Assembly (NCBI RefSeq): GCF_963921235.1
Contig: NC_086097.1
Location: forward strand, 161,698,001-161,762,000
DNA length: 64,000 bases
Source: Mobula hypostoma
Taxonomy: Eukaryota
Reading direction: 5' to 3'
Position numbers and translations under genes: made by a program. Under the pieces are notes generated by a model. That model ran no database searches, was not told where the DNA came from, and worked only from the letters and a program-made list of their open reading frames with translations. Of this stretch, positions 8,565 to 57,110 are shown piece after piece (within the stretch, counting starts at the first letter, position 1; every line of letters begins with the position of its first letter).

Positions 8565-8985
8565 TAACTCCCTATATATTCTCTCTTCAGGATCTCCTCC
8601 CATTCCCAATATGTATCATGACTTCTTGCAGTTCACCCTCCCCCTTTCAAATGCTGTGTACCTGATCCAAGACATCCATGACCCTAGCCCCTGACAGGCA
8701 AAATGTTTTCATTATTGAAAATCTTACATTGATCCTTAATTCAATGTTGACTGCTCTGCTTTGTTTGCTGATATGCATTGTATCCAGGAGCTTTCTCTAA
8801 TTAGAGGTAATTGGTTTTCAATTTTTCAGCATCTGCTATAGTAAGTCTGATGACCTGCTTCTCTGAAAGAGTTTCCTGTCCTGTGCTGCACATCCTGTTT
8901 ACAGACTTCTGATTTAAAGACTCATGGGACCTTCTGATGGATACCCAATATGCAAAGGCTCTTTGAAAAATGGGTGGTTCTATAA

Positions 8986-9185
8986 CAACACACACATCAC
9001 ACTGGAGGAACTCAGCAGGTCCGGCAGCATCAGTGGAAACGATGAGTCGATGTTTTGGGCTGGAACCCTGACGAAGGGTTCCGGCCCGAAACATCGACTC
9101 ATCGTTTCCACTGATGCTGCCCGACCTGCTGAGTTCCTCCAGCGTGCTGTGTGTGTTGCTTTGATCCCCGCATCTGCAGGTTATT
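8986..9185. mobile_element. Foldback element derived from a Penelope-like terminus, hammerhead core at the apex
   Basis: 84-nt inverted arms 8986-9069 and 9075-9158 with 5 mismatches; CTGACGA-a-GGG..CCC-GAAAC at 9068-9092; arms match the PLE terminus at 46900-46995. Confidence 0.8.
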
Positions 9186-9609
9186 TTGTGTTTATGGTTC
9201 TGTAACAAACTGTCAAGAGCCCCAAATACCAAGCACAACAAACAGAATGTTTCTTAAAACTGATGGAATAAATCACATTGTTAACTGAGTTGCCTGATTG
9301 GTATGGTTAAACTAACATATTTTTCTATTTCAAAAAAATTCATTCTAATACATGGATTATATTACTAGATTTAAGATTGTGGACTAATAATCGATAGTAT
9401 ATACTTTAATTCTCATGGTAGTATATAGATCATATGAATTTTGCTATGCCACGTGGATATGAAGGATACTTATGTGCTGAAAAATATCTTGAGGGCATAG
9501 TAATGAAGTTCAAAAATATCTACATAAACACAGTTATATTGGAAATTATTGGCTTTGGTGTAAATAGGAAAATGCACCATAATATTTAATCCATTTTAAA
9601 TTAATTCCA

Positions 9610-12899: not shown

Positions 12900-13915
12900 T
12901 AAATCTGGTAACGCCTTGCAAGATGCCTCAGCAAGGTTCCAGTGCCCTAAGAGTGACCACACCCACCATGGCAACCTTGTGATCTCACTTGCAATCTATC
13001 TACAAGAAACATCACTACTATGGAGTCTGTGGCTCACATAGTAACTATTCCAAGATCTGACACCTACTGGTGTCAAGCTTTCTACACCACCCCTCCTCCA
13101 CTCCACTGATGACTTTTTCTCCCATCTCTGGCATTCCTTTTTCAGTTGGACTTCCCCTTCTGGCTTATTACCCTCCCTAGATCTTTTTATTACCAATTGA
13201 CAAATGACTCAATCACAATTAGTCCATTTCCTGCAATTCTGCTCTCTCTCTTTTCTCTCCTGTTAGAACAACAGTCTTCTAGTCCTTCACCTTTCACCCC
13301 ACCAGCCTCTCCATCCAACACACATGCTCTACTATTTCAGCTAACCACTAGTTGCACCTTTCCCATCCCTCCCATTTTTGCTTTCTGCAGGAACTACTCT
13401 CTTCCCTAACCTGAACTCTGTCCATAATAGCCATCTCAAGATTCCAAATATATGTTACTTTAACTCTCCTGTCCATTCCCACACCAATCTATCAGTCCTC
13501 AGCCTTCACCATCACTATGGAGAAGCCCAAGAATAGCATCTCATATTCCATGCATGTAGCTTACAACCAATGTTATGGACACTGAATTTTCCAATTTCAG
13601 ATAACCCCCACCCCCCACAATCCCAGTGTTCATACTGTCACCAACTCACCTTGTTTCCTTCTCCCTTTGTTCATATTTCACATTCCCTCTCCTATCTAGT
13701 TCCATCTATCACCTACCAGCCTCAATCGTATAACTACCCCCTTGTATTGCTAATATACCAGCAATCTACCTACCTCCCTTTCAATCCTGATGCGGGGTCT
13801 TGACCCGAAATGCTGACTTATACATGCAGCCTTCACAGGTGCTGACTGACGTGCTGAATTTCAGTATTTTCTTTTTTTTGTTACAGATTCTAGTTTGGAG
13901 TCTCTTTTGTCTTTT
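12900..13915 (+). mobile_element. Penelope-like element, decayed RT C-terminus, GIY-YIG tail and terminal repeat
   Basis: ctagtccttcacctttcaccccaccagcctc (LVLTFHPTSL-like), HLIF...LQP...EFSNFR*-like tail at ~13535-13605, pyrimidine tract, degenerate hammerhead at 13783-13818. Confidence 0.7.
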
Positions 13916-14184: not shown

Positions 14185-16530
14185 ACATCCAGCTGAGATG
14201 TGGAACCTGGCCAAGTACTAAAGACCTGTACTGGTCAGTGAAATCAGTGAACTGGAGTGTTCACTGATACCTTTAAACTCTTGCTTCGGTAGTCTAAGGT
14301 ACTCCCTGCCTCAACCAGGCTTTTATTATAACAGCGCCTAAGAAGCATGTGGTAACCTGCCTCAGTGACCATCATCCAACAGCACTTCCATCCACTGTGA
14401 TCCACTGAGAGGTTGATAATGAAACACATCAACCCTTACCTGAGAAGGAACTTGGATCTGCTCCAATTTGCCTACTATCACAACAGGTCCACAGCAGATG
14501 CCATTTCACTGGCTCCTCCCTCAATTCTGAAACATCTGGACAGTGAAGATGCATACATCAGGATGCTTTTCATTGAGTACAGCTCAGCATTTAACACCAT
14601 CATCCTCTCAAAACTAATCAATAAGCTTCAATACCTTAGCCTCAATACCTTCTTATGCAATTGGATCCTTGACTTCCTCATTTGCAGACTTGTCAGTCTG
14701 GATTGAAAAAAAATCTCCTCCACAATCTCCATCAGCACACATGCACTACAAGGCTGCGCACTTAGCCCCCAGCACTATTTGCTTTATACTTATGACTATG
14801 AAGCTAAGCACAACTCCAATGCCATATTTAAGTTTACTGATGACACCACTATCAGCAGCATTTTGGGCTGCTGCTCGTGAAAATCACCATGAAATTTCCT
14901 TACACATACCATTTCTTGAAATTTCAATTCAAAATTCAAGTCAATTAAAATGTTGCCCACGATGTAAGCTGAAAATGATGCATGAGCCAGAAAAGGAAAC
15001 TGACACCGATACTAATGCAGATTTTGAACTCTTTATGTCAAGTAAGCCTCATCTAATAACGCAATCTGAGTTAAATGACCAGGTCAGAGACTTGGGTTTG
15101 TCAAAAGCAAAAGCAGAATTACTGGGTTCAAGACCGCAAGGATGGAATCTGCTGTTGCCAGGCACAAGAATTTCCATGAAGGATTTCAGTATTTGAGGCA
15201 GATGTCTCCCAGAATAACTGATGCCAAAATTAAGGAAGGCATTTTTGTTGGTCCACAATCAAAAAGTTTATCAATGACAGGTAAACCGAAGAACTTGCTG
15301 TGGGATTGGAGAAAATCATATGGAAGACATTCAAGGATGTTGTCAAAAATTTTCCTGGCAACTACAAAGCACCAAGCTATGTGCAGCTGATTGACAACAT
15401 GGTTCAAGAATACAAAACCACGAAGTGCAAAACGTCACTAAAGATTCATTTTCTACATTCCCATTTAGACTTCTTCACAAATCTTGGTGCTGTCAGTGAT
15501 GAAAATGGTGAAAGGTTTCACCAGGACATTGCAGTCATGAAGACATGGAATCAGGGCAAATGGGATCCACCAGTGCTGATTGATTATTGTTGGACATTTA
15601 AGCCAGGAGCCTTAGACACCGGATACAAATGGAAACCATCAACAAAACATTTTTAACTTAGTTGAACTATTTCAAAGCATCAGCACCATTATGCAATTAA
15701 ATGCATTATATTCAATAAAGGATAATTTCTTGTTTCTCTATATTCCTATGTGATACGAGTAGTCTGAAAGAGTATTTGTGTTCAGCATTGATGTTCTATC
15801 ATAACCACAAAATAATTCTGTGGAAGCAACAGTTTCAAAAAAATTGCTGTCCAGTGTTATTGACTTCAGGAGGAGGAAACCCAATGTCCATGAGCCAGTT
15901 CTAATCAGGGGATTAGAAGTGGAGAGGGTCAACTTTCAATTCCTCAGTGTTATAATTTCAGAGGATCTATCCTATGTCCAGCACATAAGTGCGGGTACAA
16001 AGAAAACATGGCAGTGTCTCTACCTCCTTGGATGTTTGCAAAGATTTGGCATGACATCTGAAACATTGACAAACTTCTATAGATGTGTGGAGAGTATATT
16101 GACTGGTTGCATCATAGCCTGCTATGGAAACAGCAATGCACCTGAATAGCAAATCCTACAAAAAGTAATGGACATGGCCCAGACCCATCACCGGTAGCAC
16201 CCTCCCATTCACTGAGCACTTCTACATAAGAGTGATGTCACAAGAAAGCAGCATCCATCATCAACGATTCCCACCATCCAGGTCATGCTCGTTTCTCACT
16301 GCTGCCGAAAGGAAGAAAGTACAGGAGCCTCAGGACCCACACCACCAAGTTCAGGAACAGTTATTACCCCTTATCCATCAGGTTCTTGAACCAGAGGGAA
16401 TAACCACTCAACCTCACTCACCCTGTCACCGAACTGCATCAACTGCCTACTGACTTATTTTGTTTGTTCGTTTATTTATTATTTTGTATTTGCAGTTTGT
16501 TGTCTTTTACACATTGGTTGTTTGTTTGTC
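14185..16530 (+). mobile_element. Rex1/Babar-type LINE RT and 3' end, interrupted by a DNA transposon
   Basis: [37 protein letters not shown], then resumes IDFRR...ESILTGCIIACYGN after 15856. Confidence 0.85.
14860..15856 (+). mobile_element. DNA transposon remnant, probable Chapaev3 (CMC) transposase, internally deleted
   Basis: QSELNDQVRDLGLSKAKAELLGSR, DAKIKEGIFVGPQ, SLKIHFLHSHLDFF..LGAVSDENGERFHQDI...DYCW; right end aaaaattgctgtccagtg followed by tta. Confidence 0.7.
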
Positions 16531-16539
16531 CTATTGTTT

Positions 16540-19150
16540 CTTTAAGGGGAAATCTGTTGGTCCTTGCTTGACAAATCTGTTGGAATTCTTTGGAGAAATA
16601 ACAGGCAGGATAGATAAAGGAGAGTCAGTGGATGCTTTTAACTTAGATTTTCAAAAGGCCTTTGACAAGGTGCTGCACATGAGAATGCCATGGTATTACA
16701 GGAAAGATACTAGCATGGATAGAAGATTGGCTAACTGGCAGGAGACAAAAGTGGGAATAAAGGGGGTCTTTTCAAGTAGGCTAATGGTGACTATTGGTGC
16801 TCTGCAGGGTTTGACGTTGGGACTGATCCTTTTCCTGTTATATACCAATGATTTCGATGGCGGAAAAGATGACTTTGTGACCAAGTTTGTGGAAAATATT
16901 AAGACCGGTGGAGGGTCAAGTAGTACTGAGGAACCAGGAGCCTGCAGAAGGATATAGACAGATTAAGAAAATGAGCAAAGAAGTGACGGATGGAATATAG
17001 TATAGGGAAGTATATGGTTATGCATTTTGGTAGAAGGACTAAAAAGATAGAGTATTTTCTAAATGGGAGGAAAATTCCAAAATTAGAGGTGCAAAAAGAC
17101 TTTGGAGTCATCATGCAGTATTCCCCAAATTTTAACTTGCAGGTTGAGTCAGTGGTAAGGAAGGCAAATGCAATGTCAGCATTCATTTCCCGAAGACTAT
17201 AATATATAAGGATGCATGTAATGCTGAGGATTTATGAGGCACTGGTCAGACCACATGAAGAATATGTAGGCAGTTTTGGTCCTCTTATTTAAGAAAGGAT
17301 AGAAACACAGGAACATAGAAAACCTACTGCACAATACAGACCCTTTAGTCCACAATACTGTGCTGAACATGTTCTTACTTTAGAAATTACCTTGGTTTAC
17401 CCATAGCTCTCTATTTCTCTAAGCTCCATGTACCTATCTAGAAGTCCCTCAAAAGACCCCACTGTATCCACCTCCACCACCGTCACCAGCAGCCCATTCC
17501 ACGCTCTCACCACTCTCTGCATGAAAAACTTACCCCGACAACTCCTCTGTACCTACTTCCAAGCACCTTAAAACTGTGCCCTCTCATGTTAGCCATTTCA
17601 GCCCCGGGAAAAAGCCTCTGACTATCCACACGATCAATGCCTCTCATCATCTTATACACCTCTGTCAGGTCACCTCTCATCCTCCGTCACTCCAAGGGGA
17701 AAAGGCCAAGTTCACTCAACCTATTCTCATAAGGCATGCTTCCCAATCCAGGCAACATCCTTGTAAATCTCCTCTGCACCCTTTCTGTAGTTTCCACATC
17801 CTTCCTGTAGTGAGGTGACCAGAACTGAGTACAGTACTCCAAGTGGCATCTGACCAGGGTCCTATATAGCTGTAACATTACCTCTCAGCTTTTGAACTCA
17901 GTCCCATGTTGATGAAGGCCAATGCACCGTATGTCCTCTTAACTACACAGTCAACTTACGCAGCAGCTTTGAGTGTCCTATATTCTCGACCCCAAGATCC
18001 CTCTGATCCTCCACACTGCCAAGAGTCTTACTATTAATACTATATTCTGCCATCATATTTGACCTATCAAAATCAACCACCTCACATTTGAACTCAATTT
18101 ACCACTTCTCAGCTCAGCTTTGCATCCTATTGATGTCCCGTTGTAACCTCTGACAGCCCTCCACACTATCCACAACACCTCCAATCTTTGTGTCATCAGC
18201 AAATTTACTAATCCATCCCTCCGCTTCCTCATCCAGGTCATTTACAAAAATCATGAAGAGAAGAGGTCCCAGAACAGATCTTTGAGGCACACCATTGTCA
18301 CCAACCTCCAGGAGGAATATCACCCGTCTACAACCACTCTTTGCCTTCTGTGGGCAAGTCAGTTCAGGATCCACAAAGCAAGGTCCCCTTGGATCCTACG
18401 CCTCCTTACTTTCTCAATAAACTTTGCATGGGGTACCTTATCAAATGCCTTGCTGAAATCCATACACACTACAACTACTGCTCTTCCTTCATCAATGTGT
18501 TTAGTCACATCCTCAAAAAATTCAAACAGACTCGTCAGGCGCGACCTGCCTTTGACAAAGCCATGCTGACTATTCTTAATCATATTATGCCTCTCCAAAT
18601 GTTCATAAATTCTGCCTCTCAGGATCTTCTCCATCAACTTATCAACCAGGGAAATAAGACTCACTGGTCTATAATTTCCTGGGCTATCTCTACTTCCTTT
18701 CTTCAATAAGGGAACAACATCTGCAACCCTCCAATCCTCCGGAACCTCCCCCGTTCCCACTGATGATGCTAAGATCATTGCCAGAGGCTCAGCAATTCTC
18801 CTCCTTCGCCTCCCACAATAGCCTGGGGTATATCTTGTCCAGTCCTGGTGACTTATCCAACTTGATGCTGTCCAAAAGCTCCAGCACATCCTCTTTCTTA
18901 ATGTCCATATGCTCAAACTTTTCAGTCTGCTGTAAGTCATCCCTACAATCACCAAGGTCCTTTTCCATAGTGAATACTGAAGCAAAGTATTCATTAAGTA
19001 ATGAATTCATTAAGGATATGCTGGCATTGGAGAGGGTGCAGAGAAGGTTCATGAGAATGATCCAAGCAATATTAAATCAGCCATGGATTGAATAGTGGAT
19101 CGATATCAATGGGCTGAATGGCCTAATTCTGCTCCTGTGTCTTATAGTCT
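16540..19150 (+). mobile_element. CR1 LINE RT and 3' end, host of a nested antisense CR1
   Basis: CLTNLLEFF, LDFQKAFDKV, MHFGRR; breaks at 17301 and resumes KDMLALERVQRRF at 19012. Confidence 0.85.
17302..19011 (-). mobile_element. 5'-truncated CR1 LINE nested antisense in another CR1
   Basis: ORFs NEYFASVFT, PGNYRPVSL, KFADDTK, LEYCTQFWSP; flanked by aaggata at 17295-17301 and 19012-19018. Confidence 0.9.
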
Positions 19151-19159
19151 GACGGTCTA

Positions 19160-20085
19160 GCGGTGAAGGAGAAGGATAGGATTGAAGCCAAAATATCATC
19201 AAAGCTTGAATAAAGAAAAAAATGGCAGATTGTGCCATGTATGGAGAACTGGAAATAAAGCATGGCTTGAAAAAAGTAGGGGAAGATTGCAAGAATGTTT
19301 ACAAAATGAAATTGGGAGGGTAAAGAAGGAGAAAAGAATATCATGTTGCTCAAAAATAAGGAAAATTACAATGCATTTTATACTTACAGTAACAAGATTA
19401 CCAGGAAAAGACTAGGGCCAGCTATTGATCAATGGAGCAATATGTGAGTGGATCCAGAGGACATAATGAATACTTCTCACTTATAATGACTGATGAGAAG
19501 GACAACACAGTCTTTGAATTCGGGGAGGGGAAGCAGCAAGTTACCGTTAAAAAGGAGAAGTAGATGAATTAGTAAGATTATATTTGAATAAATCTCCAGA
19601 GCCTGATAAAATACATCCTAGGCTGCTGTGGGAGGCAAAGGAAAGATTGCTGGTGGTTTGGCAGAGTCTTTGCTAAAAGTAAATGAGGTGCCAGATGATA
19701 GAAGAACAGTAAATGTGGTACCCTTTTTCAAAAACATCAACAGGTACAGAACAAAGAGTCTATGGATAGGGTAAATGCAAGCAGACTTTTTCCACTGATG
19801 TGGGGTGGGACTATAATGAGAGGTCATGGGTTGAGGGTGAAAGGTGAAAAGATTAAAGGGAATATGAGGGGAAATGGCTTCACTCAGAAGATAGTGAGGG
19901 TGTGGAATGCATAAGTGGTACATGCAAGTGGTGATTTCAATGTTTAAGAGAAGTTTGGAGAGGGACATGGATAGTCAAGATTTGGAGGACTATGATCTGG
20001 GTGCAGGTCGATGGGAGTACACAGTTCGGCATGGACTAGATGGGCCAAAGGCCCTGTTTCTGTGCTGTACTTTTCTATGACCCTG
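19160..20085 (+). mobile_element. Decayed CR1 fragments
   Basis: aatgaatacttc, aaatctccagagcctgat, aggctgctgtgggaggcaa and a CR1-type 3' UTR ending ttttctatgac. Confidence 0.65.
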
Positions 20086-20844
20086 AGAAAATTAGGGGAA
20101 AAACTCATAGGTCAGGCCTTTTTTGTAGAGAGAAAACAAAATAAACTTTTCAGTTGATTTTGTCAGATTGATCCATGTTAATGAAAATTGGAATGGGAGT
20201 GATATCAAAAAATCATGGAAACCGTTAAAGTAATTATTTAGAAATGCATAGATCAATCAACAGTAGTCCAAATATTTTATGACAAATTGGATAGGGATTC
20301 TTGTAATCTTCAAATGGATAGAAAAAAGTGAAGTAAGAATAGTGGAGTGACTGCCGTAAATGGACAGTTGACGGACTTTGACATGGATAAACATGAGATA
20401 ATTTCCATAACTGGAAAGATACTTAAGTGTAGAAATGAAAACAGAAAACTGCAGATTTAAAAACACAGTTCCCAAAGTGTGAAAGCAGTTAGGTAACTGC
20501 ATGAAGATGGCAACAACTTGTATTTAACATACCAAAATGCCCCAAGGAATTTAAGCATTTTTTACACAAAGTTAAATGAGATACTATAATTTCAGTAGAG
20601 TTCATAAGTTGAAATTTGGCAGAGCTTGGGGACTGTAAATTTATGTTACTAACTAGACTAAATTATAATTAATATTATGTATAAATGATTGAAGACCTAA
20701 ATCTTGCAGAAATTAAAGTATGACACACATGGCAGGGTAGTTGATGTCCTGTTGTTGCAGCATAATGAAGCTGGTGGAGACCACCATACCTAACTACAGC
20801 TACAATATCGAACATTACCTGGAAGAATTTAAATTCGATCAGAT

Positions 20845-23800
20845 TATAAGACATTGGAGCAGAATTAGACCATTTGGCCCATCGAGTCTACTCCACCATT
20901 CAATTATGGCCGATCCTTTTTAACCCTCCTCAGCCCCACTCCCAAGCTTTCTCCCCGAAACCTTTGATGCCCTGTCCAATCAAGAACCTATCAAGCTCTG
21001 CTTTAAATACACCCAATGACCTGGCCTTCACAGCTGCCAGTAGTAAAAAATTTCACAAATTCACCATCCTCTGGCTAAAGAAATTTCTCCACATCTCTGT
21101 TTTAAATAGACACCCCTCTATCCTAAGGCTGTGCCCTCTTGTTCTAGACGCCCCACCATGGGAAACATCTTTTCGACATCTACTCTGTCTAGGCCTTTTA
21201 CATTCGAAAGTTTCAAGGAGATCCCCCCTCATCCTTCTAAGTTCCAGCAAATACAGACCCAGAGCTATCAAACATTCCTCGTATGATAACCCTTTCATTC
21301 TCAGAATTATACTTGTGAACGTCCTCTGAACCCTCTCCAATGCCAGCACATCTTTTCTTCAATGAGGAGCCCAAAACTGTTCACAATACTCATTGTGAGG
21401 CCTTACCAGTGCCTTATAAAGCCAGAGCAGCACATTCCCATTCTTGTATTCTAGACCACTTAAAATGAATGCTAATATTGCATTTGCCTTCCTCAGCACC
21501 GACTCTACCTGCAAGTTAACCTTTAGGGTGTTCTGCACGAGGATTTCCAAGTCCCTCTGCATCTCAGATTTTTTGGATTTTCTCCCCGTTTAGAAAATAG
21601 TCTGCACAGTTATTTCTTCTACCAAAGTGCATGATCATGCATTTCCCAACATTATATTTCATTTGCTACTTTCTTGCCCATTCTTCTAATCTGTCTAAGT
21701 CCTTCTGTAGCCTACCTGTTTCCTCAACACTACAGCCTCTCCACCAATCTTCGTATCATCTGGAAACTTGGTAACAAAGCCATCTATTCCATCATCTAAA
21801 TCATTGATATGCAGCATAAAAAGAAGTGGTCTCAACACCAACCCCTGCGGAACACCACTAGTCATTGGCAGCCAACTAGAAAAGGATCCTTTTATTCCCA
21901 CTCACTGCCCCCTACCAATCAGCCAATGCTGTAACCATGCCAATAGGTACACTTAATGTCAGAGAAATGCATAAAATATACATCTTGAAATTCTTATTCT
22001 TCACAAACATCCACGAAAACAAAGTTCCCCAAAGAGTGAATGACAGTTAAATGTTAGAACCCCAAAACCCCCCAGCTCCCCCTCCCACGCATAAGCAGCA
22101 GCAAAGCAACACCCCCCCACCATCAAAAAAGCATCGACACCCCCCATTGAGCACTTAGTCGTGCAAAGTGTCAATAAAGACACAGACTTGCAGTACCCCA
22201 AAGACTACTCATTCACCTGGTAATTCGGCATACCACAGGCTCCCTCTCTCCCTAATAAGGGAAAAAGAGGTGTCCCTGTTTCACAGTAACTTTCCTGTAA
22301 TACCATGAGCTCTTAACTTGGTAAGCAGCCTCATGTGTGACACCCTGTCAAAGGTCTTCTCCCCTTTATGTATCCTACTTATAATCTCCTCAAAGAATTC
22401 CAACAGATTTTTCAGGCAAGATTTTCCCTTAAGGAAACTGTGCTGACTTTGTCCTATCTTGTCTTGTGTCACCAAGTGCTCCATAACCTCATCCTTAACA
22501 ATTAACTCCAACATCTTCCCAACCACTGAGGTCAGGCTAACTGGCGTAATTTCCTTTCTACTACCTTCCTCCTTTCTTAATGTGTGGAGTGACGTCTGCA
22601 GTTTTCCAGTCCCCTGGCATCATGCCAAAGTCCAATGATTTTTGAAACATCATTACAAATGCCTCCACAATCTTTACTGCTACCTGTTTCAGAACCCTAG
22701 GGTGCAGTTCATCTGGTCAGGGTACCTTTAGGTCTTTCAGCTTTTTAAGCACCTTCTCCCGTGTAATACTGACTGCACTCCCTTCTCTTCCCTCACACCC
22801 TTCAACATCTGGTACACTGCTCGTGCCTTCACAGTGAAGACTGATGCAAAGTACTCATTTAGTTCATCTGCCATCTCCTTGTTCCCTTTTATTATTTCTC
22901 TGGCCTTATTTCCTCGCAGTCCTATATCCACTCTCCTCTCTCTTTTATTTTTTACATACTTGGGAAAGCTTTTACGGTCCATTTTGATATTGTTTGCTTG
23001 CTTGCTTTCATATTTCATCTTTTCCCTCATAATGATTCTTTTAATTGCTCTCTGTAGGTTTTTAAAAGCTTCCCAATCCTCTATCTTCCTGCTAATTTTA
23101 GCTTTGATGTATGCCCTCTCTTTTGCTTTTACATTAGCTTCAACTTCCCTTGTCAGCCACAGTTGTACTATTTTGCCATTTGACTTTATTTTCTTCCAAT
23201 CAAATTTCAAGTTGAACCCAATCACATCCTGATCACTGCCTCTTCTTTTACCACAAGCTCCCTAACCACCTCCAGTTCATTACATAACACCCAATCCAGT
23301 ATAGCTGATCCCCTAGGCTCAACAACAAACTGCTCTAAAAAGTCATTTCATCGGTATTCAACAAACTCACTCTCTTGAGATCCATTACCAACCTGATTTT
23401 CCCAATCAACCTGCATGTTGAAATCTCCCATGACTATCATAACATTGCCCTTTTGACACACCTTTTCTATTTCCCATTGTAATGTGTGGTCTACATCCCA
23501 GCTACTATTGGGAGGCCTGTATATAACTGCCATGAGGGTCCTTTTACCCTTGCAATTTCTTAACTCAACCCACAAGAATTCAATATATTCTGATCCTATG
23601 TCACATCTTTCTAATGACTTGATGCCATTTTTTACTGGCAGAGCCAAGCCATCCCCTCTGCCTACCTTCCTATCCCTCCAATACAAAGTATAACCTTGGA
23701 CATTCAACACCCAACTATCCTTCAGCCATGATTCAGTTATGGCCACAACATCATACATGACAACCTGTAATAGTGCAACAAGATCATCCACCTTATTTCT

Positions 23801-24305
23801 TATACTCCGTGCACTGAGATCTAACACTTTGAGTGCTGTATTTGCTTCCCTTTTTGATTCTGCATCCCCAATGCACTGATACTCACCCTGCTGCCTGCAG
23901 TTTTATCCTATCATTTGCCTGCTCTTCTTGACGGGCTGAATGCATGCTATCTTTGCTTTTTTACCATCTGCCCTATCCTGAGTCCCTTCAATCCACTTCC
24001 CAACCCCATGCCAAATTAGTTCAAACCCTCTCCAACAAACCTGCCCACAAGAATAATGGACCCCTTGGGCTCAGGTGCAACCCGTCTCTTTTGTACAGGT
24101 CATACCTCCCCCAGAAGAGATCCCAATAATCCCAGAACCTGAAGCCGTGCCCCCTGTACCAGCTTCTCAGCCATGCGTTTATATGCCAGGTCATCCTGTT
24201 TCTACCCTCACTGGTGCTGGCACAGGCAGGAATCCAGAAATTAGTACCTACAAGGTACTGCTTCTCAGCTTTCTACATAGCTCTCTAAATTCTCTTTTCA
24301 GGACC
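20845..24305 (-). mobile_element. Long CR1 LINE (ORF1 tail, APE, RT, 3' UTR), disabled
   Basis: ORF 23348-23827 ARSIRNK, AITESWL, IYRPP, MGDFN; RT motifs in 22281-22526 and 21695-21901; internal deletion and frameshifts. Confidence 0.9.
21955..22285 (-). mobile_element. Short non-coding insertion in CR1 (SINE-like or LINE 3' UTR)
   Basis: Interrupts CR1 between aaccatgccaa and agtaactttcctgtaatacc; no RT similarity. Confidence 0.6.
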
Positions 24306-24439
24306 CACAGAGAATCAATTCAGCGTTGAACTGAAATCCAGATTTCAAAGAATCTGATTTAGTAGGAAGGGAAAATGTTATCTAGTCATTTTGTTCTAGG
24401 CGGCAGTCACACCCTTAAGTTAAGTACAGTGGATTTGGT

Positions 24440-26630
24440 TACTTCTCAGTCACAAGAAGGTGTGGCAATGAATGAAACAGGCATGAGAATCCAGAATGTT
24501 GTGTTGAAGAAGACTTAGTACTCGCAGTTTTTCAATGGTTATAGCAACCTGTCTGGAGGATAACGTTTACATCGTTACACGGAAAGCCATTCAAATTAGG
24601 GGATAAGAAAGAAGAAGGAAAGCTGTATTTGTAGGGACAGTGTGGTTAAGGAGTTGTCCGCATTGAGAGAGCCACACTTGAGGCAGGAACAGTTTTATTG
24701 GTGCCAGGATCAAGTAGGTTTCCTTGGAGCTGGAGAGAAACAGAGTAGGAGGGGAAGATCCAGTTATGGTGGTCCATGTGGCAACTTATCTAGGTCGTCA
24801 CCTGAGCTACATGCAAATTAGCATAGAGTCAAAAAAATCTGAAGACCTAACTCGAAGATCGGTGTGAAAAAAAAAGGTTTCAATGCAAAGGAACCGTTTC
24901 CAGTAGCTAGAAAGGAGCTGTATCATTGGCAAGATATTCACACTTTAATAAAAGGAGAGGTTTGTATGCTAATGAGAAATATTCTTCCCTCAAAAGTTCT
25001 AATGTTCACAATGAGCTGAAATTTGACTGTGAAGGAAAGAAGACACTAGTGAGAGTAATCTGTAAACTCCTAACAATAATATCATGGGGTACTATAAATT
25101 GATCATGGAGACCAGTCTGCAAGGTGCTCCAATAATCCTGGATGACTTTAGTTTACATATACTGGAAAATTCAAATTGGTGAATGTTGTCTTGAGGAACA
25201 GTTCATGGAGTGCACCTAGAATATTCTCTTTGGTTATCTTAGACTCAAGAGATACTGCAGATGCTGGAAATTGTGAGCAACACACTCAAAATGCTGGAGG
25301 GATTCTAACAAGTCAGGCAGCATCTATGTTAAGGAATAAACAGTCACTGTTTTGGGCCAAGTCTCTTCACCAGGTCTGGAAAGGAAGGAGTTTTGGAATT
25401 TCTGAAAGACAAGATCCACTATCACTTGGATCATCAAAGCTTGATCAAGAATAGTCACCATGGGAGGTCATGTCTGATAAATCTTTTGGTGTTTTTCAAA
25501 GAGGTAACTAAAGGCATAGATAAAAGTAGGGCAGTGGGTGTTGTCTTCATGGACTTTAGTAAGCCTTTTGACAAGGTCCTGCATGGTAGGCTGATCTGGA
25601 GTTTAAGTCACATGAGATTCGGAGAGTAGTAGTGAAGTGAATTCAGAATTAGCTTCATGATAGGAAGTTGAAGGGGATGGTTGAAGGCTGATTTTCTGAC
25701 TAGAGGCCTGTGACTAGTGGGGTGTTCCAGAGATCAGTGCTGGGACCTCTGTTACTCATTATTTATGTAAATAATTTGGATATTAATATACATGACACAA
25801 TTAACTAGTTTGCTGATGGTACTAAATAAGGGGGTCTTACTGACAGTGAAGCACATTACAATGAATTACAAAGATATCTTCATCAGTTAGGGAGATAGGC
25901 TGAGGAATGGCAAATGGATTTCAACTTAGATAAGACTGAAATGATGTACTTTGGACAGTTAAATCATGGTAGGTCCTGTACACTGAATGGCAGGTCACTG
26001 CTGAGTGCGGTAGAACAGAGGGATCTGGGAGTACAAGTACACAGAGTGGTAAAGAAGAAATTCAGCATGCTAGCCTCCATCAGTCAGGGCATCAAGATTA
26101 GGAGTAAGAACATTATACTGCAGTTATACAAGTTGCAGGTGTGGCCATACTGAAGTATTATGTACAGTTTTTGTCACCCTGATATAGGAAAGACAGTCAA
26201 GCTGGAGAGGGTACCTGGACTAGAGAGCCTGAGTTATATGGAGATGTTAGCAATGCTGAATTTTTATTCCCTTTAGTCCAGGAGAATGAGGAGTAACCTC
26301 AGAGAAGTTTCTAAAATGATGAGGGGTCTGGATAAAGTCACAGTATTTCCTCCAGGGTTGGGAAGTCCAAACCCAGAGTGCACAGATACAAGGTAAGTGG
26401 GGAGAGATTTAAAAGAGACCTGAGACGTAACTTCTTTATACAGAGGGTAGTGAGTACCTGGAATGAGTTGCTACAGTGAGTGGTTGAGGTGGGTACAATT
26501 GCATAGTTTAAGAGGCATTTTGATAGGTATATAAAGGGAAGGGGCTTGGAGGGTTATTGGGCTGAGTACAGACAACTGGAACTAGCCGTGAAGATGTTGT
26601 GGTCAGCATGGACTGGTTGGGCACTTGTGT
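24440..26630 (+). mobile_element. Decayed CR1 (ORF1 esterase-like remnant, APE remnant, RT, 3' end) with a Penelope terminus at 25245-25390
   Basis: gtagggacagtgtggtt and ccagttatggtggtccatgtg (SGNH-like blocks), HGRSCLINL, FMDFSKPFDKV. Confidence 0.7.
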
Positions 26631-28459
26631 AACGGAGGACTGAAAGCATACATATCTGACAAAGATGGGGGTATTCTTTGCCACTGTTTTGACAAAGAAT
26701 ATCAAGGTTATCTGTGGGATCATAACTAAAACTTGTCAAATATTTCTATAAAACCATAACTTGATTATGATGTTTGTGGATGGTTGATTTACACAAATTA
26801 CTGCATTGCAACAGTGACTCACTTACAATACCTGCAATACAGGAAAAAAAAGGTCCATCTGGTCCATGGCAGCTGCTGGGAGTGCAATCTCATTCCTCTT
26901 CTCATATTTTCCCATAATCTTACAATTTACTCTCTCTCATGTCCAACTCTTTGATTCTTTGGACATTTCCCTACATTACAAAGCAATTTACAAATTTAAG
27001 TAGCAATTAAAAGTCTAAACTTCAAAAGTACTTTATTGCCTGCAAAGTACTAAGGGCATTTTGAAAAGAATGTGAGGGTATTATCTACATGCAAATCATT
27101 TGTTTGGAGTAAGGAAGGTTAGCCAGCAGTGCACTCAAACTGATATTTATTGGCAGCAGAACCAGGGACTGTGTTATGTGATGTTAGAATAATGAAAATA
27201 ACATTTGTGGATATCTGGTCTGAAGGTGATCATGGAATACTGTACAATGTGGCACTAAGAAAACAAATCAGATAGCTGCCATCGAGAAAGATAAAGTTGG
27301 AGCTTGTGAATATTATCTGAATGATGGTATTGAATGATGCTGTGAGGCACTACATAGATGAAAAATAGAAGGGAACCAAGGACAGATTTCCGCAATGTTC
27401 AAGAAATAATGTCATAAATGTGGAAAGAGACTCAACCATTTCAATGGTCTTCTGGCTGGCTTCCCATTCTGCAACTTCCATAAATATGAAGTTATCTGGA
27501 ACTCTTACACAGATGATCCTATCCAGTACTGAAATGCTATACCTCAGCGTCACCAATCTATCTGCCCCACAGCACCTGCAAGTCATTAAGCACAGTGGTG
27601 ATTTAAAGAATCATTGAATTCCTTATTGAATTTACATCCTCACCAGTTGTATTACCTGACCTTACAATACATTCTATTTTTATTTGAGCTTCTTGGTCCT
27701 TATTTGTAATCCTTTCATTTTCTCAGCTTTCCCAAATGAAGTTACCTCTTCAAGTTCCACAACTACATCCCTCTTAGTCATTGCCATACAGCACACAAAC
27801 ACATCCTTTGACCCAAATAGTGTATGACAATTGTGTTGCCCAGCAAGCTAGTCCAATCTGCCTGCATTTGGCCCACTGCTCGCTAATCCTCTTCAATGCA
27901 CGTGCATACCTAGCTGGTTTTTAAACATTGCTAAATATGCCCACCTCAACCACTGCCTCAGGCAGTTCATTCTAAATTTCTCATTTCTGATTTCAAACTT
28001 ATTGTTTACAGCATCAAAACCTTTGTCTGACTCTGGTCTCTGTATGGTCATCTCTTCCTGGATAAATGAAATAGACAGTGTCTTCAGCTGCTTGTCTCAA
28101 ATTCCCTTCCTAACTCCTCTATCTCTCACTCCTTTGATATACTGTATTTGTTGAAGCCAGGAAAAAGGAAGTGGGGCTTCTGAGCAGAACGGATGTGATT
28201 AAATATATTTATAGATTTACAACTGGTTGGTCTTCAAAAAGATAAATATGCAAAGTAATTCATTTGAATAACATATCTTAATCAAGTTACTCAATTAAAT
28301 TGAAAGTTTTATTTAAACTCTTGCGCATAATATTATAAATCAATAATTTTTTTGCTGGTGGTAATAAAATGTAAGGCACTTTTTGGATGATTTGTCATTT
28401 TCTATTAATCAAAACTCATCCAAGCAATGGAAAAATGTCATTTGCAACTGTTAAATACA

Positions 28460-29628
28460 AAAGGTCCCACACAGGAGATTAGTGTGCAAACTTAAAGCAC
28501 ACGGTATTGGGGGTAAGGTATTGGTGTGGGTGGAGAATTGGTTAGCAGACAGGAAGCAAAGAGTGGGAATAAACGGGACCTTTTCAGAATGGCAGGCGGT
28601 GACTAGTGGGGTACCGCAAGGCTCAGTGCTGGGACCCCAGTTGTTTACAATATATATTAATGACTTGGATGAGGGAATTAAATGCAGCATCTCCAAGTTT
28701 GCGGATGACACGAAGCTGGGTGGCAGTGTTAGCAGTGAGGAGGATGCAAAGAGGATGCAGGGTGACTTGGATAGGTTGGGTGAGTGGGCAAACTCATGGC
28801 AGATGCAATTTAATGTGGATAAATGTGAAGTTATCCACTTTGGTGGCAAAAATAGGAAAACAGATTATTATCTGAATGGTGGCCGATTAGGAAAAGGGGA
28901 GGTGCAACGAGACCTGGGTGTCATTATACACCAGTCATTGAAAGTGGGCATGCAGGTACAGCAGGCGGTGAAAAAGGCGAACGGTATGCTGGCATTTATA
29001 GCGAGAGGATTCGAGTACAGGAGCAGGGAGGTACTACTGCAGTTGTACAAGGCCTTGGTGAGACCACACCTGGAGTATTGTGTGCAGTTTTGGTCCCCTA
29101 ATCTGAGGAAAGACATCTTTGCCATAGAGGGAGTACAAAGAAGGTTCACCAGATTGATTCCTGGGATGGCAGGTCTTTCATATGAAGAAAGACTGGATGA
29201 ACTGGGCTTGTACTCGTTGGAATTTAGAAGATTGAGGGGGGATCTGATTGAAACGTATAAGATCCTAAAGGGATTGGACAGGCTAGATGCGGGAAGATTG
29301 TTCCCGATGTTGGGGAGGTCCAGAACGAGGGGTCACAGTTTGAGGATAGAGGGGAAGCCTTTTAGGACCGAGATTAGGAAAAACTTCTTCACACAGAGAG
29401 TGGTGAATCTGTGGAATTCTCTGCCACAGCAAACTGTTGAGGCCAGTTCATTAGCTATGTTTAAAAGGAAGTTAGATATGGCCCTTGTGGCTACAGGGGT
29501 CAGGGGGTATGGAGGGAAGGCTGGGTTCTGTGTTGGATGATCAGCCATGATCATAATAAATGGCGGTGCAGGCTCGAAGGGCCGAATGGCCTACTCCTGC
29601 ACCTATTTTCTATGTTTCTATGTTTCTA
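28460..29628 (+). mobile_element. Young 5'-truncated CR1 LINE with an uninterrupted RT C-terminal frame
   Basis: 352-aa ORF 28482-29540 (SGVPQGSVLGP, KFADDTK, LEYCVQFWSP, RGHSL) without stops; (tttctatg)n tail. Confidence 0.95.
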
Positions 29629-30167
29629 ATTCAACTCCAAATCCATTCTAATGTCACTTTTGACTACAATACAGCCTCTATATATTTTAATACATTTCAC
29701 TTCCAATAGCATAGATCGCTATTTTGCGTACGTTAATTTTCGCTATTAAAAGGGCAAAATTGCCTACAAATCTGGAAAAAAATAAATTAGCTGATACATT
29801 CCATCCAAAGATTTTTGTCACACATTTTGTTAAATTGGTGGAAGCACAGAATGCATTCACTGCGCTATTTGGCTCACCATGTCCATCGTGCTTTATAATT
29901 ACCTAGGGCAGAATGGAGGGCAATAGGAGGTCAGGGAGCTGTGGCAAAGCAGGTAGCGCTCTTAACTGTATAAAAAAAAGATGGACCGAATGTCCTATGA
30001 ACATATTGCATCGTTCTAATCGCCGAGAAGCGATAAACCACCTCTAAGAGGTACAATATCAGTGTTTCCCGTTGTTTTATGAGGATGGATGAATCCTCTT
30101 CAACGCCGCCACATACCCGGAATCGAGCGGATACAGTACTAATATCGTCTTCAACCCGCGTTCTTAC

Positions 30168-38143: not shown

Positions 38144-39711
38144 CAGGTTCCCCCCGCCGTCCGAAGGTAGAATGTTCCTATGAAACGGTTCGTAAGCCGA
38201 AATGTCGTAAAGCGAAGAAGCAATTACCATTTATTTATATGGGAAAATTTTGTGAGCGTTCGCAGACCCAAAAATAACCTACCAAATTATGCCAAATAAC
38301 ACGTAAAATCTAAAATAACAGTAACATATAGTAAAAACAGGAATGATATGATAAATACACAGCCTATATAAGGTAGAAATACCTTTCCACAATCATTACT
38401 GAACTGTTCTCTGTAGCGAAAATCTCACGCAAGCGTCATCTGCAGAAAATCTCACGCAAGTGCTGTTGGCAAGAACACTCTCTCCAGTAACCTTTAAGCT
38501 ATGAAGCTGCCAAGTCATACCAAATAACACGTAAAAATACACAGCCTATATAAAGTAGAAATAATGTATGTACAGTGTAGTATCACTTACCGGAATTGGT
38601 TCAGCTCTGAGCACACTGATGATGGTGTGTTAGAGTGAGTCGTCGCAGGTTGGGTGGTGCAGTGGCCCCCACCCTCCGGGCCGCCGAGCGATACATTGCC
38701 GCAAAGCACGCAGGGGTCCAGCGGTAGCTGGGAGGTACACAGCACATCTTTAAGAAAAAAGCCGAAATAAACAAGCTAATTAATTAGGTGCCGCCGGACA
38801 CGTAATTGTCGGCCCAGATCAGTGCCGATTTCCGATTGCGTCGTCTCTGATCTGGACCGACAATTACGTGTCGGTGGCACCTAATTAATTAGCATGTTTA
38901 CTTCGGCTTTTTTCTTAAAGATGTGCTGTGTACGTCCCGGCTACCGTTGCATTTTCCGCGATTCGGTATCTGTCCGTGTCCTGGGGGTTGGGGTGGTGGG
39001 ACACTCATGTGTCATCTCATCGTCCCTTTCCATTAGAGCAGGCAGCTCATCTTCTTCTATCTCTCCCTGCCTTGATGTCGAAGGTCGAGGTTCGTCATCT
39101 GCTGTGGCCGATGTGGAAGGCTTGCTTGACTGCTGAGCCTTGCGCATTTTTCTATCACACAGTTCTTTAATAAGGACTCAAACCATCCTGCAGATATCTC
39201 CTAAACCGACGTACCCTTACAAAATTAAAGTCGTACTTTATCATTACTCATTCGGCTTCGATTGTTATCCTTTTTTCTTCCAATTGCATCAGCTCTTCCT
39301 CTGTCAGTTCTTGGTGATGGGATGCCAAAACCTCTTCAACATCGTGTTCGTCAGCTTCCACAAGCCAAACTCACGTTGTCCTTACTTCGTTCACCACGAT
39401 CAAAACGCTTAATTATGTCTAGTTTTACCCTAAGTGTAACACCCTTACGAGCTCTTTCAGGCTTTTCCGATACCACAGAATTCATCTTGCAAACGGCTGC
39501 TCACAGGCATGTGTTTAAGCAATGCCGGCGAGAATGCAGTTCTGAATCCGGGGGAGAGCGGCTGCTCGGGGCGCGCTCTGCCTTTTATCGCGCGGTGAAT
39601 TTTTTTTCGTAACACTGAAATCACCTTCTGAAAGCAAAAACGGTACTGATGTAGGTCTTTCGTAACAGTGAGGTTTCGTAAAGTGAACGTTCGAAAAGCG
39701 GGGAACATCTG
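38144..39711 (-). mobile_element. Internally deleted Tigger/pogo (TcMar) DNA transposon
   Basis: TA|caggttccccccgcc...gcggggaacatctg|TA imperfect TIRs; minus strand RARKGVTLRVKLDIIKRFDRGERSKD (psq/CENP-B-type HTH start) joined to DVEEVLASHHQELTEEELMQLEE (C-terminal region); no DDE core. Confidence 0.85.
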
Positions 39712-39849: not shown

Positions 39850-40060
39850 GGTACTAGAATTCTGAAGTCAAAAAAAAAAACTGGAAGTACTCTGGTTTGA
39901 CAGCATCTGCAGAGAGGGAAACAAGAGTTAATGTAAATCATGGAGCATTACACAAATGTTGAGTGTTTATTCCCCTCCATGGATGCTGCCTGACCTGCAG
40001 AGTTCTGCCAGTATTTTTTGTGTGTTGCTCAAGATTTCCAGCATGTGCAGAATCTGTTGT
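39850..40060. mobile_element. Degenerate Penelope-terminus foldback
   Basis: ctggaagtactc...cagcatctgc on the left, gatgctgcctgacctgcagagttctgccag...ttccagcatgtgcaga on the right. Confidence 0.55.
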
Positions 40061-43499: not shown

Positions 43500-46400
43500 C
43501 AAGAACCTAGTGAAAACCAGGAGATAGTGTAAAAGAGAGGTGAGAGTGGATATGGACAGCTGGAAAACCATGCTGGAGAGGTAATGGGGGCAATGAAATA
43601 GTGAGCGAACTGAATAAGTATTTTGCATCAGGGTTCACTGTGGAAGACACTAGCAGTATGATGGAAGTTCCATGTGTTGGGGGCTTGAAGTGTGTGAAGT
43701 TACCATAAATTGAACGAAGATTCTTGGAAGCTGAAAGGTCTGAAGGTAGGTAAGTCATCTGGATCAGATGGTGTACATCCCAGAGTTCTGAAAGGGGTGG
43801 TTGAAGAAATTGTGGAAGCATTAGTAATGATCTTTCAAGAATCACTAGATTCTGGAATACTGGAAAATTGCAAATGTCACTTCATTCTTCACGAAGGGAG
43901 AGAGGCAGAAGAAGGGAAACTATGGGCCTGTTAGTCTGACCTCGGTGGTTGGGAAATTGTTGGAATTGATTATTAAGGATGAGGTCTCAGGGTACTTGGA
44001 GGCAAATGATAAAATAGTCTGTAGTCAGCATGGTTTCCTCAATGGAAAATCTTGCCTGACAAATCTGTTGGAATTCTTTGAAGAAGTAACAAGTGGGATA
44101 GGCAAAGGAGAATCAGTTGATGTGTACTTGGATTTTCAGAAGGCCTTTGACAAGGTGCTACACATGAGGCTGCTTAACATGTTGCAAGCGCATGGTATTA
44201 CAGGAAAGATTCCAGCATGGCTAAAGCAATGGCAAATTGGTAGGAGGCAAAGAGTGGGATAAAGAGAGCCTTTTCTGGCTGGTTGCTGGTGGCTAGTGGT
44301 GTTCCAAGTGGGGTCTGTATTGGGATGGATTCTTTTTACGTTATGCGTCAAAGCCTGTGCCCCTCAGTTATGTGGAGTACTTCGCCATGTATTCAACCTG
44401 AGCCTGAGGCTCCGGAGGGTTCCTGTGCTGTGTAAGATGTCCTGCCTCGTCCCTGTGCCGAAGACGCTGCGCCCCAGCGGCCCCAATGACTACAGACCGG
44501 TGGCATTGACCTCCCACATCATGAAGACCCTGGAGAGACTTGTTCTGGAGCTGCTCCGGCCTATGGTCAGGCCACACTTAGATCCTCTCCACTTCGCCTA
44601 CCAGCCCCGACTAGGAGTTGAGGATGCCATCATCTTCCTGCTGAACCATGTCTATGCCCACCGGGACAAGCCAGCGAGCACTGTGAGAGTCATGTTTTTT
44701 GACTTCTCCAGTGCATTCAATACCATCCGCCCTGCTGTGCTGGGGGAGAAGCTGACAGCAATGCAGGTGGATCATGGATTCTTGATTACCTGACTGGCAG
44801 ACCACAGTACGTGTGCTTGCAACGCTGTGTGTCTGACAGAGTGATCAGCAGCACTGGGGCTCCACAAGGGACTGTCTTGTCTCCCTTTCTCTTCACCATT
44901 TACACCTCGGACTTCAACTACTGCACAGAGTCTTGTCATCTTCAGAAGTTTTCGGATGACTCTGCCATAGTTGGATACATCAGCAAGGGAGATGAGGCTG
45001 AGTACAGGGCTACGGTAGGAAACTTTGTCACGTGGTGTGAGCAGAATTATCTGCAGCTTAATGTGAAAAAGACTAAGGAGCTGGTGGTAGACCTGAGGAG
45101 AGCTAAGGTACCGGTGACCCCTGTTTCCATCCAGGGGGTCAGTGTGGACATAGTGGAGGATTACAAATACCTGGGGATACGAATTGACAATAAACTGAAC
45201 TGGGTCAAAGAACACTGAGGCTGTCTACAAGAAGTGTCAGAGCCGTCTCTATTTCCTGAGGAGACTGAGGTCCTTTAACATCTGCCGGACAATGCTGAGG
45301 ATGTTCTACGAGTCTGTGGTGGCCAGTGCGATCATGTTTGCTGTTGTGTGCTGGGGCAGCAGGCTGAGGGTGGCAGACACCAACAGAATCAACAAACTCA
45401 TTCGTAAGGCCAGTGATGTTGTGGGGATGGAACTGGACTCTCTCACAGTGGTGTCTGAAAAGAGGATGCTGTCTAAGTTGCATGCCATCTTGGTCAATGT
45501 CTCCCATCCACTACGTAATGTACTGGGTGGGCACAGGAGTACATTCAGCCAGAGACTCATTCCACCGAGATGCAGCACAGAGCATCATAGGAAGTCATTC
45601 CTGCCTGTGGCCATCAAACTTTACCACTCCTCCCTTGGAGGGTCAGACACCCTGAGCCAATAGGCTGGTCCTGGACTTATTTCATAATTTACTGGCATAA
45701 TTTACATATTACTATTTAACTATTTATGGTTCTATTACTATTTATTATTTATGGAGCAACTGTAACGAAAACCAATTTCCCCCGGGATTAATAAAGTATG
45801 ACTATTTGGAAGATGGAATTGATGGATTTGTTGCAAAGTTTGCATACAGTATGAAGATAGGTGGAGGGCAGGTAGTTTTGAGGAAGAAGAGAGGCTACAG
45901 AGGGCAGACACATTAGGAGAATGGGCAGGGAAATGGCAGATAGAATACAGTGTTGGAAAAGTGTATGATCATGCATTTTGGTAGAAGAAATGAAAGGGTT
46001 GACTATTTTGTGAATGAAAAGAAATATAAAAATCTGAGGTGCAAAGGGACTTGGGAGTCCTCGTGCAGGATTCCCTAAAGTTTTACTTGTAGGTTGAGTC
46101 TGTGGTGAGGAAGGCTAATGCAATGTTAGCATTCATTTTAAGAGGACTAGAATATAAAAACAAGGATGTAATGTTGAGTCTTTATAAAGCACTGGTGAGG
46201 CCTCACTTGGAGTATTGTGAGCAAGTTTGGGTCCCTTATCTTAGAAAGGGTGTGCTAAAACTGGAAAGGGTTCTAAAGAAGTTCATGAAAAAGATTCCAG
46301 GATTGAATAGCTTGTCATTTGAAGAGCATTTGATGGCTCTGGACCTGTATTCACTAGAATTCAGAAGAATGAGGGATGACCTGATTGAAACCTATCAAAT

Positions 46401-46864: not shown

Positions 46865-47600
46865 TCATAAACGCGAAAGATTTTGCAGATGCTGGAAATC
46901 CAGAGCAACATGCACAAGATGCTGGAAGAACTCAGCAGGTCAGGCAGCATCTATGGAAATGAATATACTGTCGACGTTTCAGACCGAGACCCTTTATTGG
47001 GACTGGAAAGGAAGGAGAAGATGCCAGAATAAGATGGTGGGGGGGGGGGGATGGGAAGGAGGATGCAAGAAGGTGAAGCTGGGGATTGTGGGGGGGAATA
47101 AATTAAGAAGCTGGGAGGTGTTAGGTGGAAAAGGCAAAGTGCTAGAGAAGAATAATTCTGATAGAGTGGACCGTGGGACAAATGGAAGGAGGAGGGGCAC
47201 CAGGGGGAGGTTATAAGCAGGAGAGAAGAAGAGGTAAGAGGCCAGAGTGGGGAATTGAAGAAGAGGGAATGGAAAGTTTCCGTAACTTGGAGAAATCAGC
47301 ATGCGCAGCATCAGGATGGATTACTAGATGGAATATGAGTTGTAGCTCCTTTAACCTGAGTTTCCTCATTGTGGCAGAAGAGCAGGCCATGGATTGATAT
47401 GTTGGAACAGGAATGGGGATAGGTTTTCAGATGGTTCGCCACTGGGGAAATTTGGCTTTTTGCAGATGGAGCAGAGGTGCTCTACAAAGAGGTTCCCCAA
47501 TCTATGTTGACTCACCTATGTAGAGGAAGCCACTTTGGAACCACTGGATACAGTGAATGATCCCAATTGATTTGCAGGTGAAGTGCTGCCTCACTTGGAA
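46865..47600 (-). mobile_element. Penelope-like element 3' part (GIY-YIG tail, pyrimidine tract, terminal repeat)
   Basis: Minus strand ttccaagtgaggcagcacttcacctgc (FQVRQHFTC), ctcatattc (LIF); degenerate hammerhead at 46968-47005. Confidence 0.8.
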
Positions 47601-56349: not shown

Positions 56350-56475
56350 TTATACAAAAATGCTGGAAATATTCAGCATTCAAGCATTATCTGTGGAAGG
56401 ACTTTTTCAGTTGAAAGGTTGACTCTTTTCACAGATCCTGTCTCACCTGCTGAGTTTTTCCAGCATTTTCTATTT
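56350..56475. mobile_element. Old Penelope-terminus foldback
   Basis: aaaatgctggaaatattcagca on the left pairs with tgctgagtttttccagcatttt on the right. Confidence 0.55.
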
Positions 56476-56949: not shown

Positions 56950-57110
56950 TAAGCAATTCTGCAGATGCTAGAAATCCAGTGACATACATGAGATACTGAG
57001 GAAGGTCAGGCAGTATCCATGGAAATGAATAGCTGACATTTTGGGCTGATGTGATGACTGTTCATTTCCATGGATGCTGCCTGACCTGAGTTTCTCCAAC
57101 AATTTGTGTA
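56950..57110. mobile_element. Penelope-terminus foldback
   Basis: aggtcaggcagtatccatggaaatgaa pairs with ttcatttccatggatgctgcctgacct; apex at gacattttgggctga. Confidence 0.7.

Follow-up and report, generated by a model that had tools for sequence, protein, structure and literature searches.

A 206-bp hairpin in Mobula hypostoma is one insertion of a Penelope-like element end whose head-to-head junction lies inside a hammerhead motif

Complex insertions of Penelope-like elements (PLEs) have been described as comprising a pLTR, an adjacent inverted copy truncated at its 5' end, a palindrome at the junction, an optional tail of 30-40 bp, and a target-site duplication (TSD) (PMC3846280; PMC8557442; PMC8969392). 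Minimal hammerhead ribozymes have been published in the repeats of these elements (PMC4209133; PMC6765202), and a palindromic sequence at positions 15.2-16.2 is given as a consistent feature of metazoan PLE hammerheads, for dimer formation (PMC4209133). For PAc, a Poseidon element of the green anole, in vitro experiments showed that both target strands are cut and extended and that reverse transcription starts at two internal sites bounding the tail; this element inserts without the need for hammerhead cleavage (PMC11167929). In addition, non-LTR retrozymes have been reported in one chondrichthyan (bioRxiv 10.64898/2026.07.22.740005). The comparisons made here refer to the accessible text of these publications.

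The hairpin described in this study lies in a stretch of 64,000 nucleotides of Mobula hypostoma DNA, hereafter the window, and represents a single insertion of a PLE end; its parts and the related copies are listed in Table 1. The inverted truncated copy, the junction palindrome, the one-sided tail, and the TSD found here are an already published PLE architecture, as far as the accessible text goes. The inverted repeat pairs 8986-9069 with 9075-9158, with 79 of the 84 bases complementary, three of the five mismatches located at CpG sites, and a 5-nt loop, GACGA, at 9070-9074. It was the top short-loop inverted repeat within the window, with a score of 69 compared to 24 for the runner-up. The 84-nt arms, five mismatches, and 5-nt loop proposed in the first-pass annotation were thus recovered by the inverted-repeat search. 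Its reading of the core sequence, CTGACGA, also holds, although the C and T (9068-9069) that it placed in the loop are bases of the left arm, and the extent that it gave, 8986..9185, has to be revised to 8989-9194, as 8986-8988 are bases of the target duplication. The two ends do not form symmetric terminal inverted repeats, the tail being confined to the right side, where it ends at the same point as in the linear copies 46868 and 25240. Searches against Rfam returned microRNA-type hairpin matches only, below the gathering score; the match to mir-1791 (41.7 bits, gathering 75) was rejected as a generic hairpin.

Table 1. Coordinates of the insertion, its parts, and the related copies within the window.
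Feature	Positions	Strand	Basis
Left TSD copy, 14 bp, one base changed since insertion	8975..8988	+	Direct-repeat comparison, empty site
Inverted, tail-less short arm; PLE terminus 5'-truncated, from stem II onward	8989..9069	-	Arm alignments
Junction overlap, CCT / 5-nt loop / AGG micro-inverted repeat	9067..9077	+	Sequence, linear-copy alignment
Direct (sense) arm of PLE terminus	9067..9158	+	Arm alignments
Incomplete minimal type I hammerhead	9068..9100	+	Descriptor scan, folding, linear-copy alignment
One-sided tail, 36 nt (39 nt with 3-nt target overlap)	9159..9194	+	Copy alignments
Right TSD copy, matches empty allele	9195..9208	+	Direct-repeat comparison, empty site
Older linear copy, behind decayed endonuclease C-terminus (13390-13632)	13390..13889	+	tblastn
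Linear 5'-truncated copy, start ~17 nt upstream of core	25240..25390	-	Copy alignments
Older fold-back, arms poorly matched, different junction	39873..40055	.	Inner-end mapping
Linear copy behind decayed GIY-YIG endonuclease C-terminus (about 47600-47280; frameshifts, stops)	46868..47600	-	tblastn, phmmer
Older fold-back, different junction	56352..56469	.	Inner-end mapping
Second fold-back, tail on left, junction downstream of core boxes	56956..57108	.	Inverted-repeat search, inner-end mapping

The boundaries of the insertion were established by comparing direct repeats and by aligning to 8800-9400 the contigs of four public runs (X1, X9, X12, and X17, of 24 listed). A search for TSDs, suggested in the first-pass annotation, revealed the 14-bp duplication that bounds the unit and that had been overlooked; its two copies are identical at 13 of 14 positions, a match equalled by 1 in 2000 random window pairs, and the last three bases of the left copy also pair with 9156-9158. 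In run X1, both insertion junctions were matched without differences, and 93% of the words sampled from 8700-9500 were present. One contig each in X9 and X17, which carry other species labels, runs directly from 8974 to 9195, the intervening 220 nt being absent; the empty site was found in two of the three other species, X12 having no coverage of the flanks. Based on the exact X1 junctions and on these two contigs, the insertion comprises 206 bp (8989-9194) plus one duplication. Its flanks show single-copy contig depth, and those of X9 differ from the window at 13 of ~373 bases. With the X9 flanks diverged and the site empty, the insertion is younger than the split from that species. A second TSD search, covering five other window copies, found none for four of them and a weak candidate (10/12) for the fifth.

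With one duplication bounding the whole unit, an empty allele that lacks all of it, and the X1 word coverage and exact junctions, it is highly improbable that the hairpin arose from two independent insertions, from a later inverted duplication or conversion, or from an assembly artefact. Such origins would be in line with the ability of PLEs to insert into their own repeats (PMC11167929), with the poorly matching arms of the fold-back at 39873-40055, and with the observation that the whole element is spanned by none of the contigs listed.

At two places in the window the terminus is preceded by a decayed GIY-YIG endonuclease end, and for this reason the hairpin is assigned to the end of a PLE, not to a DNA-transposon MITE. 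In these two linear copies the terminus proper occupies 46868-47030 (minus) and 13764-13889 (plus), starting 150-250 nt behind the decayed reading frames, and a profile built from the window copies located about ten further arms. When seven relative proteins were compared with the window by tblastn, matches fell at the endonuclease remnants only (two places; five of the seven proteins gave matches, E 1e-13 to 4e-4). By phmmer, protein P0008 showed 69% identity over 32 residues to a read-through of the 47600-47280 remnant; the other four of the five phmmer matches, to two immunoglobulin-repeat proteins, a zinc-finger protein, and a repetitive protein matched in 34 stretches, were rejected as spurious. 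The relatives of P0008 come from rays and sharks, judging by their NCBI names, with GIY-YIG plus reverse transcriptase (RT) matches: PF01541 was above the cut-off in three of four relatives and below it in one, and RVT_1 was detected in P0015, P0023, and P0027 at E values of about 1e-4 to 4e-5, below the Pfam cut-off. A CX2-5CxxC motif precedes the GIY-YIG region in all seven relatives checked; this linker has been tied to Neptune PLEs (PMC8557442), and the Neptune clade may be taken as a lead for the present element. In the window copies, however, RT is absent and the linker cannot be read in the endonuclease remnants. The three frames of the window remnant matched neither GIY-YIG nor anything relevant in Pfam, and a word-indexed search with it gave no match. 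Pattern scans for further copies returned 0 in viral contigs, 0 in metagenomes, and 0 in prokaryote genomes; the 49 metagenome loci obtained with a looser pattern were rejected as chance matches, none aligning over more than 34 nt (median GC 0.65). Four ray gene models named as host proteins such as mucin-2, a kinase, or a chitinase-domain protein (P0008, P0011, P0018, and P0026) contain PLE endonuclease sequence, probably through mis-annotation or exonisation.

The TSD, the empty site, and the GIY-YIG endonuclease link bear out the retro-derived, Penelope-like origin initially proposed. A DNA-transposon MITE with long terminal inverted repeats, resembling a hammerhead by chance, would also be ~200 bp long, non-coding, high in copy number, and hairpin-shaped, and a contrast with the ends of autonomous DNA transposons had been suggested at the outset. 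That contrast points to a GIY-YIG element as the partner and makes the DNA-transposon origin scarcely credible: the tail is one-sided, the linear copies are joined to GIY-YIG remnants, the hammerhead descriptor match described below is rare by chance, and the duplication is 14 bp long, whereas cut-and-paste DNA-transposon superfamilies produce fixed TSDs shorter than this.

Comparison with the complex insertions of EN+ PLEs showed that this insertion shares with them an inverted copy placed head-to-head and one TSD around the unit. The junction overlap is 11 nt, compared to 15 bp in Pen2a_Av, and the tail found at one end only is 36-39 nt, compared to 31 bp. However, the insertion has no ORF and no second direct pLTR, both copies are shorter than 130 nt, the TSD of 14 bp exceeds the 8-10 bp of rotifer PLEs, and the junction is located inside the hammerhead core, a position unmentioned in the accessible text on published PLE complex insertions. 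As in PAc, the tail is bounded by two end points (PMC11167929); its end is located 119 nt from stem II, and the RT start of PAc is at +111-118 from the start codon at stem II. PAc belongs to another clade, though, and has a complete hammerhead that cleaves with protein help (PMC11167929). The non-LTR retrozymes are likewise short, non-coding, PLE-derived, and hammerhead-bearing (bioRxiv 10.64898/2026.07.22.740005), but they are head-to-tail tandems with complete hammerheads, whereas the present insertion consists of one head-to-head unit and its hammerhead is broken. In the literature searched, subscription papers and Repbase aside, nothing was found on junctions inside the hammerhead core, nor were such fold-backs found for cartilaginous fish.

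The hammerhead consists of CTGACGA, an extra A, stem II (9076-9087), GAAA (9088-9091), CATC, and the 3' strand of stem I (9096-9100), with a predicted cut after 9095. It contains the elements of a minimal core, namely CUGANGA, GAAA, NUH, the extra base, and the G10.1-C11.1 pair. Like the minimal type I hammerheads previously described (PMC4209133), it has the core boxes and the G10.1-C11.1 pair, an extra base between positions 9 and 10.1, and no helix III loop. Unlike them, it has no 5' strand of stem I, carries CA at positions 15.2-16.2 of helix III (in both arms, and non-palindromic), has a stem II of only three G-C plus two wobble pairs, and is buried as a whole in an 84-bp hairpin. The missing strand is replaced by the inverted arm, and 1 bp of stem I remains; in the linear copies, the strand adjoining C3 forms pairs with the bases that follow the cut site, and the copy at 46971 keeps four of the five stem I pairs next to C3. 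A descriptor combining the core boxes, a stem II with a G-C first pair, and NUH gave a single window match, at 9068, and any match at all in 2 of 200 block shuffles. The bare pattern CTGANGA-N8-24-GAAA was in no excess over chance in the window (7 matches compared to 4.66 expected, with at least 7 in 16 of 100 shuffles), the Rfam hammerhead families gave no match up to E=1, and no hammerhead core was detected on the minus strand. In the predicted fold of the whole element, the pairing probability of stem II is 0.0, and forcing stem II with an open core changes the energy from -163.4 to -131.4 kcal/mol, a cost of ~32 kcal/mol. These models suggest that the ribozyme of the insertion is probably inactive. 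The descriptor scan and the folding are in agreement with the earlier claims of a missing 5' strand of stem I, a competing long hairpin, and probable inactivity, and the copy was likely dead on arrival.

The first-pass annotation had further claimed that the inversion point is fixed at the ribozyme core. This was not supported by a comparison of four fold-backs plus contig tables, in which the other three window fold-backs turn elsewhere and the contig junctions of relatives vary. Mapped on a linear copy, the inner ends are at -1/+6 from C3 in this insertion, +35/+37 in the fold-back at 57000, +13/+42 in that at 56400, and +21/+48 in that at 39900, and the older fold-backs may have lost their centres by later deletion. 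What stands of the claim is a looser clustering, since all four window junctions are within ~50 nt of the core. Among 12 of the 44 rows listed in the joint table, several joints between left and right arm were observed, with sense letters starting near GAAAC or elsewhere; copies with the same apex cannot appear in this table, which so shows variety, not frequency. Cleavage as the cause of this apex was rejected: the cut falls after 9095 and the apex is at 9070-9074, ~25 nt upstream, so that ribozyme cleavage likely did not set it.

The same data bear on whether a fold-back with a fixed apex spreads as a non-autonomous unit (a retro-MITE), or whether the apex is an inversion point set by the ribozyme. 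Copies with the same apex would account for the X9 piece (9002-9099) that crosses it in a species where the locus is empty, and for an X1 depth at 9066 that is ~200 times the single-locus depth; the clustering of the four junctions is also compatible with a fixed apex. However, this piece is the only one of the 32 listed that crosses the apex, three of the four fold-backs turn elsewhere, and the predicted cut site is away from the apex. Moreover, relative to 9067-9072, the depth at 9066 (bin means) amounts to no more than 1.1% in X1 and 0.21%, 0.16%, and 0.10% in the other three runs, a rough bound that assumes a depth at 9052-9066 no greater than at 9051, counts one-arm contigs too, relies on summed contig depth, a poor measure of copy number, with linear and truncated copies in the denominator, and may be lowered by hairpin loss in short-read libraries. 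Taken with these counts, such an origin appears quite unlikely.

We consider it somewhat probable that reverse transcription of the element RNA was primed by the two target strands, each of them nicked, and that two short cDNAs were linked in head-to-head orientation. The tailed arm would derive from priming by the bottom-strand nick at the outer start site, and the tail-less arm from priming by the top-strand nick at the inner one; the 3' ends of the two cDNAs could then anneal at the 3-bp CCT/AGG micro-repeat native to the hammerhead core, which alignment with the linear copies shows to be common to direct and inverted copies. The outer ends are bimodal relative to C3, with tail-less arms ending at about +78 to +90 and tailed arms at +120 to +132, the short arms failing to reach the tail end by some 35-40 nt. 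Head-to-head products are unreported in the accessible account of PAc in vitro, which counts against two-strand priming (PMC11167929). The same PLE origin is shared by a possible but less favoured route, in which one cDNA stopped near 9067, folded its 3' AGG onto CCT, extended itself, and was joined to the target. Palindromic PLE junctions have been interpreted as self-priming in print (PMC3846280), the CA change at helix III is common to both arms, as this route would have it, and a minus strand ending at 9067 can form a 3-bp hairpin in the predicted minimum-energy fold. In the junction and the 3-nt target match that they predict, self-priming and two-strand priming do not differ. However, the predicted hairpin is marginal, with 6% of the ensemble and an unpaired centroid, and the regular end of the short arm, 35-40 nt before the tail end, is left unexplained.

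In two of the linear copies (47005-47030 and 25375-25390, both minus), a splice-acceptor-like pyrimidine tract ends in CAG two bases before C3; the corresponding tract of a third (13770-13787, plus) ends in CAA. The sense arm of the 206-bp insertion begins at the second base after the CAG position (one case), and the 5' end of helix I is where the intron has been mapped to end in Drosophila virilis (PMC4209133). It is conceivable, though we regard it as doubtful, that the Penelope RT has a stop-and-turn hotspot at the 5' edge of the hammerhead, set by a splice acceptor overlapping stem I and not by cleavage.

The family is very abundant, with 17,028-29,906 contigs per run matching the stretch. 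The arms of the insertion are 94% alike and 63-76% alike to other window copies. A sequence shared by both arms and different from the copy at 46971 had been attributed to copying between the arms or homogenisation. Neither is needed, given an abundant short-spacer subfamily and a common CA-for-CG change, and a likeness of 94% is expected of one insertion from one template. The depth at 9100 reached 355,531 in X1 (about half with the base of the insertion), compared to ~5,000 in X9 and 4,300 in X17; since the X1 depth is far above the others, a subfamily recognisable by the short spacer has expanded in the best-matching species. In loose-end lines of three runs the CA form occurs as well, and at the mirror position 9051 the canonical C accounts for 6793 of the 9985 depth in X1. 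On the simplest reading of these sequences, the spacer and CA changes would already have been present in the source from which the two arms were copied.

Other features were observed in the window. The arms of the fold-back at 39873-40055 may stem from different subfamilies. A second, unrelated long palindrome at about 38720-38950, with ~100-nt arms and a 12-nt centre at 38829-38840, is possibly a DNA-transposon-derived fold-back. Two open frames at 14618-15656 (plus), without a Pfam match, presumably recall a Chapaev-type DNA transposase, and the sequence from 57243 onward, just after the second fold-back, has a start that we take to resemble a hAT-type MITE terminus. LINE remnants with RVT_1 and AP-endonuclease matches are dense, including 28455-29540 (plus), 44263-45663 (plus), 23348-23902 (minus), and many more.

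As a dead retroelement scrap, the single copy matters little, and annotation can mistake hairpins of this kind for MITEs or microRNA precursors. Nevertheless, the locus is a clean, dated example of an inverted-plus-tail PLE insertion, with an empty site in two relatives and a 14-bp duplication, for a class of insertion whose mechanism, self-priming or two-strand priming, is unsettled in the field. With 17,000-30,000 matching contigs per run, there are enough copies to decide this mechanism by counting junctions. If the 5' edge of the hammerhead were indeed a turning point of the RT, hundreds of thousands of such scraps would map the 5' boundary of the RNA template and would show in vivo twin priming from two known RT start sites.
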